This document shows positions 30,449-54,966 of a stretch of 64,000 nt of DNA, in pieces; the first letter of the stretch is position 1, and each line of letters opens with the position of its first letter. The DNA lies in NCBI RefSeq assembly GCF_055900595.2, contig NZ_CM148325.1, one strand, 5' to 3'. Below the pieces are notes generated by a model. That model made no database searches, was not told the DNA's origin, and saw only the letters and a program-made list of their open reading frames with translations. The translations under genes and the position numbers were made by a program.

Positions 30449-30609
30449 CGCTAAATAATAGAGCAACCTTTAATAATCTTCTGCTGAATAAAGATTGTCT
30501 CATATATTAATTTTATGAGATTTTTTTAGGATTATATCAAGGAGAAGAAACGAACTTATTAAACTAGAATAGCTGCGGGTGCTTGAGACTGTTTGTCTCA
30601 GGTATTCAC

Positions 30610-30690
30610 CGAAAGGCAGACAGAGAAAAGCCCCACCTGACTATAAATCAAAGTGAGGCTACCCTATGCCTGAACACCATAAGGTTAGCC
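30610..30690 (-). ncRNA. sokA: putative Sok-type antisense RNA of the hokA locus (approximate position)
   Basis: Inference from hok/sok locus architecture (antisense RNA overlapping the mok translation start region); no promoter or terminator individually verified. Confidence 0.3.
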
Positions 30691-30878
30691 TCTTACTCGT
30701 TGGAAATCAACACAGGAGGCTGGGAATGCCGCAGAAATATAGATTACTTTCTTTAATAGTGATTTGTTGCACGCTTTTATTTTTCACCTGGATGATAAGA
30801 GATTCACTGTGTGAATTGCATATTAAACAGGGGAGTTATGAGCTGGCGGCATTTTTAGCCTGCAATTTGAAAGAGTAA
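30666..30878 (+). CDS. mokA: Mok-type reading frame overlapping and in-frame with hokA (translational coupling ORF)
   Basis: 70-codon ORF starting MPEHHKVSLLLVGNQHRRLG then continuing into Hok; architecture matches known chromosomal hok/mok loci. Confidence 0.5.
   Translation: MPEHHKVSLLLVGNQHRRLGMPQKYRLLSLIVICCTLLFFTWMIRDSLCELHIKQGSYELAAFLACNLKE
30726..30878 (+). CDS. hokA: Hok-family type I toxin (50 aa membrane peptide)
   Basis: MPQKYRLLSLIVICCTLLFFTWMIRDSLCELHIKQGSYELAAFLACNLKE; AGGAGG 6 nt upstream of ATG; terminator hairpin GGCGGGAAGTTATTCCCGCC follows. Confidence 0.85.
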   Translation: MPQKYRLLSLIVICCTLLFFTWMIRDSLCELHIKQGSYELAAFLACNLKE

Positions 30879-31065
30879 GAGTCTTCGGCGGGAAGTTATT
30901 CCCGCCTTTCTTACGGCGTTGCGCATTCTCATTGCACCCAAATTTATTTTTCACAAAAATAATAATAGATTTTATTACGCGATCGATTATTTATTTCCTG
31001 AAAAACAAATAAAAAAATCCCCGCCAAATGGCAGGGATCTTAGATTCTGTGCTTTTAAGCAGAGA

Positions 31066-31278
31066 TTACAGGCTGGTTACGTTACCAGCTGCCGGGCCTT
31101 TAGCGCCGCTTTCGATGGTGAAGGACACTTTCTGACCTTCGTCCAGAGATTTGTAACCATCGTTCTGGATAGCAGAGAAGTGTACGAACACGTCTTTAGA
31201 GCCATCGTCAGGAGTGATGAAGCCGAAGCCTTTGTCAGCGTTGAACCATTTTACGATACCAGTCATTTTACCGGACAT
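31066..31278 (-). CDS. cspA: major cold-shock protein CspA
   Basis: [70 protein letters not shown] (70 aa, RNP1/RNP2 motifs). Confidence 0.98.
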
Positions 31279-31500
31279 AGTGTATTACCTTTAATAATTA
31301 AGTGTGCCTTTCGGCGATATGGCGTGCTTTACAGATTTTGAAGCGTTAAAGGAATGTGCACTACGAGGGGTATCAACGATAACTCTTGAAGGGACTTGCC
31401 TTACTACACTGCTTTAATGGTCTGTACGTCAAACCGTTGATGTGCATTAAGCCACGCATTGGCGGGTGATGCAACAATTATTTTTCATATTTATGATTAA
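31279..31500 (-). promoter_or_regulatory. cspA long 5' UTR (cold-box leader, about 160 nt) and promoter with AT-rich upstream element
   Basis: Reverse complement of 31279..31438 reads as the known cspA leader ...ACGGTTTGACGTACAGACCATTAAAGCAGTGTAGTAAGGCAAGTCCCTTCAAGAG...; TTGCAT / CTTAAT-like promoter hexamers upstream. Confidence 0.7.
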
Positions 31501-42633: not shown

Positions 42634-42710
<77 letters not shown>

Positions 42711-42719
42711 ATTTAGAAA

Positions 42720-42745
42720 AACCAGCCTACGGGCTGGTTTTTTGC
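42720..42745 (+). terminator. proK terminator
   Basis: CCAGCCTACGGGCTGG followed by TTTTTTGC, 10 nt after the tRNA 3' end. Confidence 0.8.
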
Positions 42746-42759
42746 TTTCTGCGACCTGA

Positions 42760-42885
42760 AGAGGATAAGAACCTCCGGGGGCAGAGAGGTTCGACTCGAG
42801 CAAAGCGAGAGAACGTTGCGTCAGCAACGGCCCGCAGGGCGAGCCACGCAGTGGCGAGTAATCCTCTGGCACCGACCAAATCTGA
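42760..42885. other. Degenerate tRNA-like segment ending in a near-copy of the proK 3' end
   Basis: AATCCTCTGGCACCGACCAA (42860..42880) versus proK 3' end AATCCTCTATCACCGACCAA; upstream GAGGTTCGACTC resembles a T-arm. Confidence 0.4.
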
Positions 42886-42889
42886 ACGT

Positions 42890-42970
42890 AGGCCTGATAA
42901 GACGCGTCAGCGCCGCATCAGGCAACGGCACCGCACTTATTGTCGGATGCGGCGTGAACGCCTTATCTGA
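42890..42970. repeat. REP/BIME palindromic elements
   Basis: GCCTGATAAGACGCGTCAGCGCCGCATCAGGC and GTCGGATGCGGCGTGAACGCCTTATCTGACC. Confidence 0.8.
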
Positions 42971-43339
42971 CCGACACACCACATATTTCCCTGCCAAATT
43001 TGCGCCCCACATCTCACTATCCATTAACGGATTTGTGACAGAATCCATTGTCTTTTTTTATATTTGCTTAAATCTTTTTTTGCGTTACTTATGGCTGGCG
43101 CTGGCATTTTCCGCTGTGCGTTTTAGCGTTCATGGTATTAATCGCTCAGATATCCATCTTTTCCTCAGATTTTTTTCATTAAATGCATAAAACTTAATCA
43201 CCAAATGTTGCTAAATATTAAGCTGATTGTTCTGGTTATGTTGGCGTAGCACAAATTTCTCTGCTGCAAATAGCTGTTTGAAGTTTTTTTAATCTTTGTT
43301 TGTGGATTCTCACCGTTGGTGTAAATCCCGGTTGGCTGT

Positions 43340-49412: not shown

Positions 49413-50684
49413 TTACTCAATCAGCTTCAACAGTGGCGACAAGCATAACAAAATGCCGTACAGCAGAATCATCCAGGCTTTAAACCCGCGAAGTTTTTCC
49501 AGTTGTGAGACTTTATAGATCAGGAAAAATGGAATGAGGCACGACACAATGCCATATAACGGGCTTCCCAACTGAAAGAACACCAGCACCGATACACGAA
49601 ACGAAACCCAAATCGTCAACGTAATGACGATAAAAGCGCAGATCGCCAGAGTCAGCATGCGTGAGTTAATTTTCTTGGTATCAATAATTCGGCTTAACAG
49701 ATTGAGAATAATGCCTTTAATGGCCTCGTGGAAACCGAGATAAATGCCAAAGAATGCGGTCAGTACGGCAAAGATATTCAGCACCGTAGAGGTGATATGA
49801 ATGATATGCCCAGGGATCACCTGCGCGGCCAGTGCCAGTGCCGAGATATTTTGTTCAAAGGCAGAAACGGCTTCTTCGTGGCTAATTGAGAAGGTAAACG
49901 AAAAGGCAAAAAACAGGATCACCGCGATGAGCGTGACATAACTAATTCGGTGGGTACGCAGCGCGAGCCGGGTTGCCAGTACTTTATCCGCTTCCCGTTT
50001 ACGATAGGCAATATTCATTGGGTTAAGTACCTGAATAAATACCGCAGAAAAGAAGCAAAAGGGAATGGTAAGCAGGACATCGCGGAAAAAGACGGAGGCT
50101 TGCGGGAAGGCGGTTATATTGGCGAAATTCCAGTGCGGGATCATCGCAAAACCGAACACGACGATAATCCCTACTTTGACCACCACCATTGGCCCGGAAA
50201 TCTTAAACAGTAATCGTTCACCACCAGACGCAATTGCCACCAGTACGGCGAAAATGGCGACTTTATAAAGTAGAGATTGTGAAAGATCGGCATCGGTTAA
50301 ACCGAAGGTTTTCAGGTACGAGGCGCTGTCGAAAACCACGGAGAGAGAGTAGATAAAAATCCCGTGGATAATCATCAAAAAGTAGATAACCCCGAGGAAA
50401 ATTCCCCAGTTCTTCCCCAGGTAATGACTGATAATATCGGTGTAGTCATTACAGGAATCGCTTTCAGAAAGGGTTTTTAAATAAATGTCCTGCACTACCC
50501 AGGTGGCAGGATAAGCAATGATCGCTGCGGTAATAAATACCCAAATTCCCTTCAAGCCAATTTGTACTGGCATCAGCACGGTTCCGGCACCAATCGCCAT
50601 GCCTATGCATAATAAAACCCAGCCGAAGTCGTAGCGTGTAAACGGCATTTTCTGATCGTGTTTCGGTAGTGTGTTGTGCTGCAT
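49413..50684 (-). CDS. yhjV: amino-acid (HAAAP/serine-threonine type) transporter family protein
   Basis: Start at [28 protein letters not shown] gives 423 aa; polytopic. Confidence 0.85.
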
Positions 50685-51039
50685 AAAGTCCTGTCCAGAA
50701 AGAAGTCGGCCTCGCAAAAATGAATAAACCCAGTTTCTCTTGCGCAACAGGTGGAGAAGTCGAATACGCAGTATGTAAAAAATGAGGCAATAGATTCACT
50801 GGGGAGGTCGCGAGGAGGCGCAATTCTACAAAATTGCGCATTTCACTACCAGTCTGGAGTCAGCCCGGATATGAACTGCAACTATTGCAAATAAAGAAAT
50901 TAAGCTGGAAGGTATCACGCAATGAGGAAGGTTGCCGGGTGCTGACGGTAAAAAGCAATCGTAAAATCAGCGGCAAGCCGGAAAGGTTCCGGTGAGGCGC
51001 AATGTTGCGGGGGCTTAATCCCTGGTGGCATTGGTTGCT

Positions 51040-51112
51040 GGAGAGAGAAAACCCCCGCACGTTGCAGATATTCACCTGACAACATCACGGGGGCTAATCT
51101 TGAACCTAGACC
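51040..51112 (-). ncRNA. rdlD: putative Rdl antisense RNA, copy 1 (approximate ends)
   Basis: Minus-strand GC stem (CCCCCG...CGGGGG) followed by UUUUCUCUCU, opposite the ldr leader; inferred from LDR locus organisation. Confidence 0.35.
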
Positions 51113-51159
51113 ACTCAAGAATAGCCGCGAAACGTTGTCATTACAACACAGGCGGCTAT

Positions 51160-51267
51160 ATGACGCTCGCAGAACTGGGCATGGCCTTCTGGCATGATTT
51201 AGCGGCTCCGGTCATCGCTGGCATTCTTGCCAGCATGATCGTGAACTGGCTGAATAAGCGGAAGTAA
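51160..51267 (+). CDS. ldrD: Ldr-family type I toxin, copy 1 (35 aa)
   Basis: MTLAELGMAFWHDLAAPVIAGILASMIVNWLNKRK; closest to K-12 LdrD as recalled. Confidence 0.85.
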   Translation: MTLAELGMAFWHDLAAPVIAGILASMIVNWLNKRK

Positions 51268-51522
51268 CGTGTCAGACGGGCGTCAGGCTGCCGTAATGGC
51301 AATTTGCGCCCGGACCAGGCCGCAGGGATAAAACTCTGCGGCCTTTTTCGTAAGAAAAATGCAACGGTTGCAAGCGGATAATATTCTGCGGAATGCGCAG
51401 CACAGAGTGAAGAAGTGACGGATTCCGGAACAGAAAAACAGTCGTAGAATCAGCGGCAAGCCGGAAGGGTTCCGGTGAGGCGCAATGTTGCGGGGGCTTT
51501 ATCCCTGGTGGCATTGGGTGCT

Positions 51523-51595
51523 GGAGAGAGAAAACCCCCGCACGTTGCAGGTATGCACCTGACAACACCACGGGGGCCATTCTTGCATCCAAACA
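51523..51595 (-). ncRNA. putative Rdl antisense RNA, copy 2 (approximate)
   Basis: Same element one repeat unit downstream. Confidence 0.35.
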
Positions 51596-51642
51596 ATACA
51601 AGAATAGCCGCGAAACGTTGTCATTACAACACAGGCGGCTAT

Positions 51643-51750
51643 ATGACGCTCGCAGAACTGGGCATGGCCTTCTGGCATGATTTAGCGGCTCCGGTCATTG
51701 CTGGCATTCTTGCCAGTCTGATCGTGAACTGGCTGAATAAGCGGAAGTAA
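51643..51750 (+). CDS. Ldr-family type I toxin, copy 2
   Basis: MTLAELGMAFWHDLAAPVIAGILASLIVNWLNKRK (M26L relative to copy 1). Confidence 0.85.
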   Translation: MTLAELGMAFWHDLAAPVIAGILASLIVNWLNKRK

Positions 51751-52006
51751 CGTGTCAGACGGGCGTCAGGCTGCCGTAATGGCAATTTGCGCCCGGACCA
51801 GGCTGCAGGGATAAAACTCTGCGGCCTTTTTCGTAAGAAAAATGCAACGGTTGCAAGCGGATAATATTCTGCGGAATGCGCAGCACAGAGTGAAGAAGTG
51901 ATGGATTTCGACGAGCAAAAATGGCCGTAGAATCAGCGGCAAGCCGGAAGGGTTCCGGTGAGGCGCAATGTTGCGGGGGGCTTTATCCCTGGTGGCATTG
52001 GTTGCT

Positions 52007-52079
52007 GGAGAGAGAAAACCCCCGCACGTTGCAGGTATGCACCTGGCAACACCACGGGGGCCATTCTTGCATCTAGACC
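52007..52079 (-). ncRNA. putative Rdl antisense RNA, copy 3 (approximate)
   Basis: Same element. Confidence 0.35.
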
Positions 52080-52126
52080 ATTCAAGAATAGCCGTGAAAC
52101 GTTGTCATTACAACAGAGGCGGCTAT

Positions 52127-52234
52127 ATGACGCTCGCAGAACTGGGCATGGCCTTCTGGCATGATTTAGCGGCTCCGGTCATCGCTGGCATTCTTGCCAG
52201 TCTGATCGTGAACTGGCTGAACAAGCGGAAGTAA
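52127..52234 (+). CDS. Ldr-family type I toxin, copy 3
   Basis: Identical peptide to copy 2. Confidence 0.85.
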   Translation: MTLAELGMAFWHDLAAPVIAGILASLIVNWLNKRK

Positions 52235-52489
52235 CGTGTCAGACGGGCGTCAGGCTGCCGTAATGGCAATTTGCGCCCGGATCAGGCCGCAGGGATAAAA
52301 CTCTGCGGCCTTTTTCGTAAGAAAAATGCAACGGTTGCAAGCGGATAATATTCTGCGGAATGCGCAGCACAGAGTGAAGAAGTGACGGATTCCGGAACAG
52401 AAAAACAGTCGTAGAATCAGCGGCAAGCCGGAAGGGTTCCGGTGAGGCGCAATGTTGCGGGGGCTTTATCCCTGGTGGCATTGGTTGCT

Positions 52490-52562
52490 GGAGAGAGAAA
52501 ACCCCCGCATATTGCAGGTATGCACCTGACAACATCACGGGGGCCATTCTTGAACCTACACA
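52490..52562 (-). ncRNA. putative Rdl antisense RNA, copy 4 (approximate)
   Basis: Same element. Confidence 0.35.
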
Positions 52563-52609
52563 ACTCAAGAGTAGCCGCGAAACGTTGTCATTACAACACT
52601 GGCGGCTAT

Positions 52610-52717
52610 ATGACGCTCGCAGAGCTGGGCATGGCCTTCTGGCACGATTTAGCGGCTCCGGTCATTGCTGGCATTCTTGCCAGTCTGATCGTGAACTGGC
52701 TGAACAAGCGGAAGTAA
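52610..52717 (+). CDS. Ldr-family type I toxin, copy 4
   Basis: Identical peptide to copy 2. Confidence 0.85.
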   Translation: MTLAELGMAFWHDLAAPVIAGILASLIVNWLNKRK

Positions 52718-52972
52718 CGTGTCGGACGAGCGTCAGGCTGCCGTAATGGCAATTTGCGCCCGGACCAGGCCGCAGGGATAAAACTCTGCGGCCTTTTTCG
52801 TAAGAAAAATGCAACGGTTGCAAGCGGATAATATTCTGCGGAATGCGCAGCACAGAGTGAAGAAGTGACGGATTCCGGAACAGAAAAACAGTCGTAGAAT
52901 CAGCGGCAAGCCGGAAGGGTTCCGGTGAGGCGCAATGTTGCGGGGGCTTAATCCCTGGTGGCATTGGTTGCT

Positions 52973-53045
52973 GGAGAGAGAAAACCCCCGCACGTTGCAG
53001 GTATGCACCTGACAACATCACGGGGGCTAATCTTGAACCCAAACA
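52973..53045 (-). ncRNA. putative Rdl antisense RNA, copy 5 (approximate)
   Basis: Same element. Confidence 0.35.
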
Positions 53046-53092
53046 ACTCAAGAATAGCCGCGAAACGTTGTCACTACAACAGAGGCGGCTAT

Positions 53093-53200
53093 ATGACGCT
53101 CGCAGAACTGGGCATGTCCTTCTGGCATGATTTAGCGGCTCCGGTCATTGCTGGCATTCTTGCCAGTCTGATCGTGAACTCGCTGAATAAGCGGAAGTAA
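53093..53200 (+). CDS. Ldr-family type I toxin, copy 5 (variant A9S, W30S)
   Basis: MTLAELGMSFWHDLAAPVIAGILASLIVNSLNKRK; loss of the C-terminal-region Trp may affect activity. Confidence 0.7.
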   Translation: MTLAELGMSFWHDLAAPVIAGILASLIVNSLNKRK

Positions 53201-53286
53201 CGTGTCATGCGGGCGTCAGGCTGCCGTAATGGCAATTTGCGCCCGGATCAGGCCGCAGGGGTGAAACTCTGCGGCCTTTTTCGTTC

Positions 53287-54966
53287 TTATTGCGGGTAAG
53301 GCACCCAGTCGCCGCCGTTCAGGCGAACGTACGGTTTATCCTGGTATTGAATAACTACTGCATTTGAGTTCTCGGAGACCGGTGCTGTTTGTGGCAACCC
53401 ACTGGTGAGTTTTTTCCAGTCAACATTGTCTTCGGTGAAAATCTTACCATCAAGAACGCGAACCACCAGATCGGAGATAGCCAGGAAGCTGCTCGGTTGG
53501 TCGATGACAATCGGTGCCCCCTGATGTGGTGCCTTCATGCCGAAGAATTTCACCCCAACGGGGACGTCTGTGATAGACGGGCTAGGGATATCACGTAGGC
53601 CAGATACCTGCATTCTGTCGCCCTTCAGCGCGCCACCGTGTTCCGGCACCACTACCACCATCACTTTACGACCCGATTTCTCCAGTTCAGTAAAGAAGGC
53701 GTCCAGCTCATCAAAGAATTTCTGCGCTCGCGCTTTGTAATCCGCTGTTTTGCTGACGCCCGGATAATGGTTGCCGTCATGCAGTGGAAGCGTGTTATAG
53801 AACGTGGCACTACGGCTGTTTTTATCTTTTTCGGTAACGTCCAGCCAGCGGTTAAGCACGGCGGTATCGTCATAAACCGGCGAACCATCAAAGCCCAGCA
53901 AAATAACCGGCAGATTTGTTTGATCCATCAATTCGGTCTGCATGCCGCCATTTTCGCGAACTTCTTTCAAAAAACCGCCGAACTGGCCGTTATGTCCCAT
54001 CATCAGGTGCTGGGTAAAGCCCAGTTTCGACAGGTTATCAAACAGATAGCAGTCGTTATTTGCCGGTTGATACAGATTAGTGTGCGAAGTCTGCCCGCAG
54101 CTGGCGCGCAGTAAACGGATCGCCGCCGGGCCACTGTAGGAGGTGGCGGAGTTAAAGTTCTTGAACTCAATATCGAAATGCGACCACAGCGGATGCGACA
54201 TCAACCCGGCGGCTTCAATATCCGACCAGGAAAGCGAACAGATATTAATCACCAGTAGTTCAAATGGCTGAGCATCAGCGGGCAGCGAAGACGGGAAGGT
54301 CGATTTACGTTTCGCCTCCGCGTTATAGAAATTATTCAGCCAGGCGTTAAGGTTCGCCGTTGTGGGCGGTGCAGTTTGTGCGGGCATATCACCCACTACC
54401 GGTGCGCCACCCGTCGCCGCAACGGTTGCCGCTGCGTTACCACCCGTCGTTGTTACAGTGGTCGTCGGTTGACCGGCAGGCCACAAGGAGAAACTTGGTC
54501 CCGCCAGGGTAAGTACGTTCAGCCATAGCAGAATGGCAACCACAAAAACGGTAATGCGAATCCATTGTGACAGGAATAACCAGGCCACTAATAAAACAAA
54601 AATGGCCCCAATCATCTGCCAGTTAATAAAGCGTGTGACAAGGTCGATTAAATAATCGGTACTGAACCCCGCCACCTGCGAACCCTGGCTCATTATGCTT
54701 TCCGGGCCAGGCAACCAGGTGTCATGCCAGAACAAAGCAAAGCCGATCGGCAGGGCAATCCAGTGGCGTAAGCGATGCAGGCTGTAGCGCGGAATGGGCA
54801 TCAGCAGAAACGCGGCAAACACCAGATTGAGGAGCGGATGGAAGTTAAGATATCCCGCCCACAACAGGCCGAACTTAACCAGAAAATAGAAGTTCCAGCC
54901 GGAAAGGCCGCGCCAGTATTGCCAGAGGGAAGAAGGCATGGCGGTATTTTGCGTAAATTGAGTCAT
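53287..54966 (-). CDS. bcsG: cellulose biosynthesis protein BcsG (phosphoethanolamine transferase for cellulose modification)
   Basis: 559-aa [45 protein letters not shown]... Confidence 0.9.

Follow-up and report, generated by a model that had tools for sequence, protein, structure and literature searches.

The interval between yhjV (49413-50684, minus strand) and bcsG (53287-54966, minus strand), which lies in the 64,000-nucleotide stretch of contig NZ_CM148325.1 analyzed here as the window, consists of five ldr/rdl units of 483-484 bp each, arranged head-to-tail. Tandem Repeats Finder reported one array at 50951-53284 with a period of 483, 4.8 copies and 94% matches, and a repeat search placed successive unit starts 483, 484, 483 and 483 bp apart. 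To the left of unit 1 the homology extends at lower identity to about 50886; the sequence there corresponds to the inter-unit spacer in a diverged form, so that the promoter region is present in all five units. Taking the two together, the whole LDR-D-type array spans 50886..53284 on the plus strand. The initial annotation had placed it at 50930-53285, which captured the array but set its left edge too far to the right. Its description of five head-to-tail units of ~483 bp agrees with the repeat period, the five ORFs, the terminators and the five rdlD matches, and comparison with K-12 MG1655, where a single ldrD/rdlD lies between bcsG and yhjV, confirmed its statement that K-12 has one copy at this locus. 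Both the yhjV/bcsG flanks and the LdrD-group peptide identify the locus as LDR-D and not LDR-A/B/C. An identical sequence in RefSeq carries five genes named "type I toxin-antitoxin system toxin Ldr family protein", and five annotated Ldr genes lie at yhjV-bcsG in at least 38 records; rdl genes have no annotation in NZ_CP098223.1, the one five-unit record examined for them. The array is a real and ordinary row of known E. coli small-toxin/antisense-RNA modules, already annotated in dozens of finished genomes.

Unit 1 starts with a putative ldr promoter whose -10 element, TAAAAT (50962..50967, plus strand), occupies the position of TAGAAT in K-12 LDR-D, about 380 nt upstream of the end of the ldr-1 terminator. 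It is followed by the predicted antitoxin, antisense RNA rdl-1 (51046..51111, minus strand; RF01813, 85.5 bits, model positions 1-66/66), which contains a minus-strand terminator at 51068-51054, by the 35-aa toxin ORF ldr-1 (51160..51267, plus strand; MTLAELGMAFWHDLAAPVIAGILASMIVNWLNKRK, WP_001295224.1) and by an intrinsic terminator located by the terminator scan (51317..51349, plus strand). The same order recurs in unit 2, with a putative -10 TAGAAT at 51445..51450 (plus), rdl-2 at 51529..51594 (minus; RF01813, 81.7 bits), the L26 variant ldr-2 at 51643..51750 (plus; WP_000170738.1) and its terminator at 51800..51832 (plus, same scan). Unit 3 comprises a putative TAGAAT at 51928..51933 (plus), rdl-3 at 52013..52078 (minus; RF01813, 80.4 bits), ldr-3, again L26, at 52127..52234 (plus) and a scanned terminator at 52284..52316 (plus), and unit 4 a putative TAGAAT at 52412..52417 (plus), rdl-4 at 52496..52561 (minus; RF01813, 79.7 bits), the L26 variant ldr-4 at 52610..52717 (plus) and a scanned terminator at 52767..52799 (plus). 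In unit 5, a putative TAGAAT at 52895..52900 (plus) precedes rdl-5 at 52979..53044 (minus; RF01813, 90.4 bits, the best score of the five), the S9/L26/S30 variant ldr-5 at 53093..53200 (plus; MTLAELGMSFWHDLAAPVIAGILASLIVNSLNKRK, WP_103253593.1) and a terminator at 53250..53282 (plus) that ends 4 nt from the stop codon of bcsG, to which ldr-5 is convergent.

As first annotated, and in exact agreement with the translated ORFs, the peptides carry M26 in copy 1 and L26 in copies 2-4, with A9S and W30S added to L26 in copy 5. Even copy 5, the most divergent, matches Pfam PF13940 (Ldr_toxin) over residues 1-35/35 with E=3.8e-23 and aligns end-to-end with LdrD in PDB 5LBJ (35/35 residues, E=2.9e-16), and copies 1-4 are nearer to LdrD than copy 5 is; an NCBIfam scan of the Ldr peptides returned no family match. 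All five peptides retain P17-V-I-A-G21, the PXXXG motif (as defined in PMC7472228) in the transmembrane helix, and the C-terminal NKRK. The Trp between the helix and the charged C-terminus, Trp30, which is the signature of the Ldr/Fst superfamily (PMC2887945), is present in copies 1-4 and replaced by S30 in copy 5. Across 52 ldr ORFs, diversity (pi) is 0.014 at first and second codon positions vs 0.049 at third positions, and the variable codons comprise nine synonymous and seven nonsynonymous; by these measures the ORFs are under constraint.

The five minus-strand RNAs match Rfam RF01813 (rdlD) at full length (1-66/66) and score 79.7-90.4 bits, where the gathering score is 50. Relative to its own ldr ATG, each occupies the segment 49-114 nt upstream, overlapping the 5' UTR and clear of the ribosome-binding site and start codon, and all five are predicted to fold into the same hairpin (-29 to -32 kcal/mol). 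Among 23 distinct Rdl sequences, each variable stem pair is still paired on the minus strand through the wobble-compatible changes AU/GU, UG/UA and GC/GU; 88.2% of cells were paired in the minus-strand hairpin vs 73.9% in its plus-strand mirror image. By this count, the preservation of Rdl pairing is strand-specific, and compensatory changes on both sides of the stem were absent from these 23 sequences. The K-12 RdlD sequence is the same as that of one Rdl from another strain's array. Terminators were found five times on each strand of the array, 10 in total vs 3.6 +/- 2.3 in shuffles. A strict sigma-70 consensus scan of the array returned no promoter sites, but K-12 shares both the -10-like TAGAAT/TAAAAT and the conserved sequence preceding the Rdl +1, and we regard the former as putative ldr promoters because of this conservation. 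The ldrD mRNA is reportedly ~370 nt long (Kawano 2002).

We consider it very probable that the five ldr/rdl units at the chromosomal LDR-D locus are old paralogous type I toxin-antitoxin modules, inherited vertically as an array. The analysis itself shows how the units are built, to which families all the ORFs and antisense RNAs belong, that Rdl pairing is preserved strand-specifically, how old the units are, how they correspond by position between strains and how frequent they are in the population, while transcription, toxicity, repression and the coupling mechanism are carried over from K-12 and would apply here by analogy. In K-12, LdrD, which has an α-helical transmembrane domain, is toxic (PMC8309996); toxicity on overexpression and repression by the antisense RNA have been described for LdrD/RdlD (PMC4147584, PMC8309996), both ldrD and rdlD RNAs have been detected, and ldrD-rdlD double-stranded RNA is RNase III-dependent (PMC7373196). 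Each unit would accordingly resemble K-12 in being a self-contained module: a plus-strand promoter region would give an mRNA of about 380 nt, made up of a ~185-nt leader, the 35-codon ldr ORF encoding a small membrane toxin, and the intrinsic terminator, and a minus-strand promoter overlapping the ldr ribosome-binding region would give a 66-nt Rdl RNA. This RNA would combine a single-stranded 5' tail with a terminator hairpin and show full complementarity to the leader segment 49-114 nt ahead of the ldr start. On the pattern of K-12 ldrD/rdlD, Rdl would pair with the leader and block toxin translation. [quoted passage not shown] RNase III would cleave the Rdl-leader duplex, toxin synthesis would have to wait until the level of the unstable Rdl drops, and the copy number, between one and five, would shift by unequal homologous recombination between units. 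No separate out-of-frame "ldrX" ORF overlapping the ldr start is conserved; the ldr frame alone is open upstream. We also considered a 25-aa leader uORF (51002-51079) and rejected it as coding, because a frameshift disrupts it both in unit 3 and in other strains' 484-bp units.

How far the five modules act separately may depend on the Rdl 5' tail. The five Rdl sequences are all distinct, differing pairwise at 3-9 nt, of which 2-6 nt fall within nt 1-17. Across 52 units, whose 23 distinct Rdl sequences are composed of a few recurring tail motifs, pi reaches 0.197 in nt 1-17 compared with 0.032 over the remaining Rdl positions and 0.049 at third codon positions, so the tail is hypervariable, with about 4x third-codon-position diversity. 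This suggests unit-specific recognition by the antitoxins, a mildly new lead. Taken further, it could mean that each antitoxin is specific to its own ldr leader and that the array holds five independent, non-redundant switches, as in Sib/Ibs and Orz/Zor, where cognate-only repression has precedent (PMC2943612, PMC8167048). We hold this reading tentatively, as a possibility with somewhat less than an even chance: the remaining ~49 nt are nearly identical between Rdl RNAs, which could permit cross-pairing, and the tail may be just unconstrained or a mutation hot spot. It refines, and does not exclude, the array of old paralogous modules proposed above.

Three features call for caution in regarding every unit as active: the unit 1 leader ATG, the extra G in unit 3 and the missing signature Trp of unit 5. 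The unit 1 leader has lost an ATG that is conserved in 47/52 units, a rare change found in 2/52, and the unit 3 leader has one additional G in its G-tract (G6), which fuses the leader uORF to the ldr frame. With the absence from copy 5 of the Trp that marks the superfamily (PMC2887945), these changes could indicate that at least one unit, with units 5 (W30S/A9S), 1 and 3 as candidates, is silent or attenuated and has been kept since its deletion needs rare recombination. We judge such a partly dead array unlikely, if still worth weighing. ORFs, Rdl RNAs and terminators are intact throughout, 484-bp unit spacings are common in the arrays of other strains, and the prototype Fst-pAD1, which is toxic, has Val in place of the family Trp, so that the signature is non-essential there (PMC7472228).

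Nor did the suggestion that copy 5 may be decaying hold up. W30S occupies the bcsG-proximal position in 8/8 S30-bearing arrays examined, including that of SMS-3-5, with the same ORF DNA haplotype, and at least 1000 contigs carry it; the S30 ORF is otherwise unchanged from strain to strain, and in unit 5 the ORF and terminator are intact and the Rdl is the best-scoring of the five. A9S alone is lineage-specific, and the S9/L26/S30 peptide is still present on 455 contigs. W30S is evidently an old, widespread allele that is usual in the bcsG-proximal copy. The Trp-less S30 peptide forms the bcsG-proximal end of many arrays. A joint reading, in which diversifying selection on Rdl nt 1-17 insulates the five switches and the Trp-less S30 peptide has diverged in function (for example, attenuated or modulatory) and is not dying, seems to us improbable, though conceivable.

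The age of the units bears on how the array arose. Over 424 positions, sister units within the array differ at 13-38 positions and each differs from the same-position unit in other, unrelated strains at only 0-8, in agreement with the tree, which makes the units old paralogues with positional orthologues. Copy number at yhjV-bcsG ranges from 1 to 5 across E. coli, and arrays of 1, 2, 3, 4 and 5 units were each verified in other finished genomes. Because overlapping match pieces were joined and coverage class was no clean guide to copy number (3-unit arrays, for example, cover 100% of a 5-unit query, in two pieces), we relied on a rank-spaced sample of 60 records and on direct inspection of 15 loci; in the sample, 1, 2, 3, 4 and 5 units accounted for about 38, 10, 33, 15 and 2%. 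With a synthetic 6-unit query, the best 30 matches listed were all 4-unit arrays joined from 2-3 pieces and included no single-piece 6-unit match, which argues against close 6-unit relatives; divergent ones are still possible. The single-copy locus lacks the inter-unit spacer except as the diverged region upstream of unit 1. K-12 LDR-D is most like unit 1 in its left part and most like unit 5 in its 3' UTR, so that the K-12 single unit looks like the left part of unit 1 joined to the right part of a last unit.

These data largely refute a recent tandem amplification, in this lineage, from one K-12-like ldrD unit into unstable, redundant units of which copy 5 is starting to decay. In favor of such an origin are the single unit in K-12 and in about 38% of sampled genomes, the 94% likeness of the units and the absence of the conserved Trp from copy 5 (PMC2887945), but the combination of near-identical units and no orthologous counterparts that would mark it was not found. 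The distances to sisters and to positional counterparts, the spacer-less single-copy locus and the shared S30 haplotype leave it very unlikely, and with arrays of 2-5 units common among finished E. coli genomes, the word "amplification" in the initial annotation does not fit if it is meant to denote an expansion that is recent or out of the ordinary. That the repeat was expanded or collapsed in assembly, giving a wrong copy number, is extremely unlikely: the repeats exceed short-read length and collapse of an ldr array has been suspected in an older assembly (PMC7232551), but no two units are identical (minimum 13 differences outside the promoter segment), eight complete genomes, which come from at least three independent projects, share a 3601-bp region at 100% identity, and five Ldr genes recur in the records counted above. 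Assembly collapse, raised earlier as a hazard, is thus unlikely here.

With the vertically inherited array of paralogous modules as the preferred reading, the impact on the field is small, as descriptions of the ldr/rdl family, of its tendency to occur in tandem arrays and of its lineage-specific duplications go back to 2002-2010, and RefSeq already carries an annotation of this exact array. The single ldrD of K-12 would represent the reduced form of a locus at which E. coli strains have between one and five old paralogues, and work on ldrD function, for example on deletion phenotypes or persistence, would not transfer directly to multi-unit strains. The terminal variant without Trp and the hypervariability of the Rdl tails offer cheap handles on the residues needed for LdrD toxicity and on Rdl target recognition.

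Among known systems, K-12 LDR-D is closest, with the same locus, orientation and module architecture. Identity to LdrD falls from 34/35 residues in copy 1 to 31/35 in copy 5, and the units are 90.8-95.5% identical to LDR-D over 424 columns. In contrast to LDR-D, the array has five units and not one, three peptide variants, five Rdl variants, and spacers in which the ldr promoter region occurs in a second version. K-12 LDR-A/B/C (ldrABC/rdlABC) likewise has tandem ldr/rdl units within one intergenic region (PMC4147584, PMC2887945), but at another locus, chaA-kdsA (PMC7232551); its toxins are of the LdrB-group, which Fozo et al. regarded as a separate ancient duplicate of the LdrD-group (PMC2887945), and LdrA is 57% identical to LdrD (PMC8309996). 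RefSeq five-unit arrays are identical in Z0117EC0005 (NZ_CP098223.1), AST85 and six others, and 97-99% identical elsewhere, for example in SMS-3-5 (NC_010498.1); most of the other five-unit arrays have an S30 terminal copy without A9S, and the order of M26 and L26 copies varies by strain. The ibs/sib and zor/orz loci are also tandem small-toxin/antisense-RNA modules, in which near-identical antitoxins tell cognate from non-cognate mRNAs by short variable regions (PMC2943612, PMC8167048), although their toxins are unrelated to Ldr. The hok/sok system (with mok) resembles the ldr/rdl model in its long 5' UTR and in an antisense RNA directed at a leader frame and not at the toxin ribosome-binding site (PMC4147584, PMC8167048). 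It differs in its unrelated toxin family; moreover, in the array the sole frame crossing from the Rdl target to the ldr start is the ldr frame itself, with no overlapping out-of-frame ORF.

Five head-to-tail ldr/rdl units lie between the yhjV and bcsG ORFs, as the initial annotation had proposed, each with a 35-codon toxin ORF (ldr, + strand) and an antisense antitoxin RNA (Rdl, - strand); K-12 MG1655, as also stated there, has one ldrD/rdlD at this locus. Tandem Repeats Finder reported a single array (50951-53284; period 483, 4.8 copies, 94% matches). A repeat search placed the units at spacings of 483/484/483/483, and the ORFs, numbered from the yhjV side, occupy 51160-51267, 51643-51750, 52127-52234, 52610-52717 and 53093-53200. 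Each unit has a -10-like TAGAAT/TAAAAT conserved at the K-12 position, then a leader of about 185 nt, the ldr ORF and, about 380 nt downstream of the -10-like site, a terminator. Ten terminator-like sites were found, one behind each ORF and one at each rdl 3' end (shuffles, 3.6 +/- 2.3). The peptide differences described earlier were exact: copy 1 reads MTLAELGMAFWHDLAAPVIAGILASMIVNWLNKRK, copies 2-4 carry L26, and copy 5 carries S9, L26 and S30. The proposed extent, 50930-53285, held except at its left edge, where the approximately 65 nt upstream represent the inter-unit spacer in diverged form, which moves the array start to near 50886 and gives each of the five units a putative promoter region.

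In unit 3, the leader G-tract (51975-51980) is G6 rather than G5, yielding a 484-bp unit and joining a 25-aa leader uORF (ATG at 51968) to the ldr frame as an 88-aa ORF (51968-52234); 484-bp spacings are common in arrays of other strains. By our own reading, putative rdl promoter hexamers on the - strand change from TATTCT to TACTCT at 52543 (unit 4) and from TTGTAA to TTGTAG at 53063 (unit 5).

By the family tests, all ORFs and antisense RNAs of the array are Ldr or Rdl. The Rfam rdlD model RF01813 (gathering score, 50) matched five times on the - strand, over the whole model each time (79.7-90.4 bits), 49-114 nt upstream of the respective ldr start codon. Copy 5, the most divergent peptide, matched Pfam Ldr_toxin over its full length (E=3.8e-23) and aligned with the solved structure of LdrD (5LBJ) from end to end, while the PXXXG motif (PMC7472228) and a basic C-terminus are present in all five peptides. 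The ldr ORFs are also constrained: across 52 ORFs, nucleotide diversity was 0.049 at third codon positions vs 0.014 at the first two, with nine synonymous and seven nonsynonymous variable codons. No two of the five window Rdl RNAs are alike (3-9 nt apart pairwise), and they share a hairpin fold. Among 23 distinct Rdl sequences from 15 strains, all variable stem pairs are kept on the - strand through wobble-compatible changes, and 88.2% of cells are paired in this hairpin vs 73.9% in the + strand mirror hairpin, which loses the variable pairs; two-sided compensatory changes were not seen in the stem among these 23. This modest, strand-specific evidence suggests that structural constraint acts on the antisense transcript.

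The initial annotation further regarded the array as an assembly-collapse hazard, which is made unlikely by 100% identity over a 3601-bp region including the flanks in eight complete genomes, the work of at least three projects: Z0117EC0005 (dog, Korea), AST85 and six CM1285xx-CM1286xx human isolates. A recent amplification fares no better. We compared this locus across a further 15 complete genomes with 1-5 units each (57 units in all); sister units within the window array show 18-38 differences over 424 aligned positions, falling to 13-23 without the promoter segment, whereas each window unit is 0-8 differences from its same-position counterpart in another strain. By neighbour joining, units next to yhjV group in a single clade whatever the strain, and a second clade gathers most of the bcsG-proximal units with S30; the internal units are less clearly sorted, with some duplicates inside one array (e.g., EC42405 units 3 and 4). 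Such is the pattern of old, vertically inherited paralogues whose copy number would have been altered by unequal recombination, mainly of internal units. The single K-12 unit, unit-1-like from promoter to ribosome-binding region and unit-5-like in the 3' UTR, fits what is expected of a first-unit/last-unit recombinant. Ldr loci have been described as evolving by lineage-specific duplication with stable duplicates, and 2-10 Ldr/Fst genes per enterobacterial genome were tabulated by Fozo et al. (PMC2887945).

Five annotated Ldr genes occupy the locus in 38 of the 40 best-ranked records, SMS-3-5 among them. When 60 records were sampled in even steps through 5438 matching records, with classes checked by inspecting loci, 23 had one unit, six two, 20 three, nine four and one five; the remaining record matched at only 80.6% identity, the match covering two Ldr genes and neither flanking gene. 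By these counts, five units mark the upper end of a common copy-number polymorphism, at roughly 1-2%. The best 30 matches to a synthetic six-unit query held no six-unit array. In NZ_CP098223.1 (4562445-4564485, identical to the window), RefSeq PGAP annotates five Ldr CDS and no rdl ncRNA; the rdlD gene is annotated in K-12. The array is real, correctly identified and ordinary: its toxin-antitoxin family, kind of tandem array and locus are all known, and it is already publicly annotated.

Several avian pathogenic E. coli genomes carry IS200C-family transposase genes inside the yhjV-bcsG match. In strain EC581, a truncated bcsG abuts a partial bcsC, implying a probable bcs operon deletion beside the array. 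Plasmid-typed records of the E. coli genome collection hold 29-30 LDR-like places; LDR sequences were reportedly absent from known plasmids (Kawano, 2002). Elsewhere in the window, a sok antitoxin (RF01794, 124 bits; 30577-30728, +), marking a second type I toxin-antitoxin locus, of hok/sok type, adjoins the cspA thermoregulator (RF01766, 501 bits; 31011-31438, -). After a tRNA (42634-42707, +) come RtT RNA (RF00391, 42744-42878) and naRNA4 (RF02564, 42891-42972, -); the identical RefSeq genome has tRNA-Pro and RtT annotated at the equivalent of 42634-42972.

Copy 5 had been suspected of decay. Its ORF and terminator are intact, and its Rdl score is the best of the five. For W30S, the evidence goes against decay: contigs with the L26/S30 peptide (WP_000170736.1) number at least 1000, and the peptide is encoded by the bcsG-proximal copy of M160133, SMS-3-5, 2017-02-2CC, EC42405, R32_14_1F, AF3 and JNE25-001, in each case with an identical ORF DNA haplotype. 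A9S is specific to the window's lineage, the S9-bearing peptide occurring on 455 contigs. Since Trp30 is a signature of the Ldr/Fst superfamily (PMC2887945), an effect of W30S on peptide activity is possible; the toxic Fst-pAD1 prototype has Val at this position (PMC7472228), and no LdrD mutagenesis has been published according to PMC8309996.

In K-12, ldrD and rdlD RNAs are both made, and LdrD overexpression kills cells unless relieved by RdlD co-expression (PMC4147584, PMC8309996). RdlD does not cover the RBS; a proposed, unproven model has it block a leader frame, ldrX, translationally coupled to ldrD (PMC4147584, PMC8167048), and RNase III cleaves the ldrD-rdlD duplex (PMC7373196). By extension from K-12, the window units would produce ldr mRNA and Rdl from opposite strands; the 66-nt hairpin Rdl, complementary to the ldr leader, would pair there and block a leader frame coupled to ldr translation, and RNase III would cut the duplex. 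In the five units and K-12, no frame but that of ldr itself, which is open for 45-56 codons upstream, runs through the Rdl target to the ldr start. Of 52 units from 15 strains, 47 have a leader ATG (GGTATGCAC) in the ldr frame facing the Rdl apical loop, units 2-5 of the window among them (51548-51553, 52032-52037, 52515-52520, 52998-53003); we guess that this ATG could start the proposed ldrX frame. Unit 1 has lost it to two substitutions within the Rdl apical hairpin (ATATTC at 51065-51070, as in EC42405 unit 1), so that the window unit with a rare regulatory change, if any, would be unit 1.

The upside of the array is modest and would, if true, lie in S30 function or Rdl specificity. Variation clusters in the 5' tail of Rdl, which is single-stranded, at nt 1-17 (51095-51111, 51578-51594, 52062-52078, 52545-52561 and 53028-53044 in units 1-5), with a pi of 0.197 vs 0.049 at third codon positions, 0.032 for the remainder of Rdl and 0.018 for the leader upstream. 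Any two window Rdl RNAs differ at 2-6 of these positions, and the 23 distinct Rdl among 52 units are made of few recurring tail motifs. The tail may merely be unconstrained. Alternatively, Rdl tails may be cognate-specific, so that the five units would be insulated switches and not redundant copies, by analogy with ibs/sib and zor/orz, where short variable regions make near-identical antitoxins specific for their cognate toxins (PMC2943612, PMC8167048).
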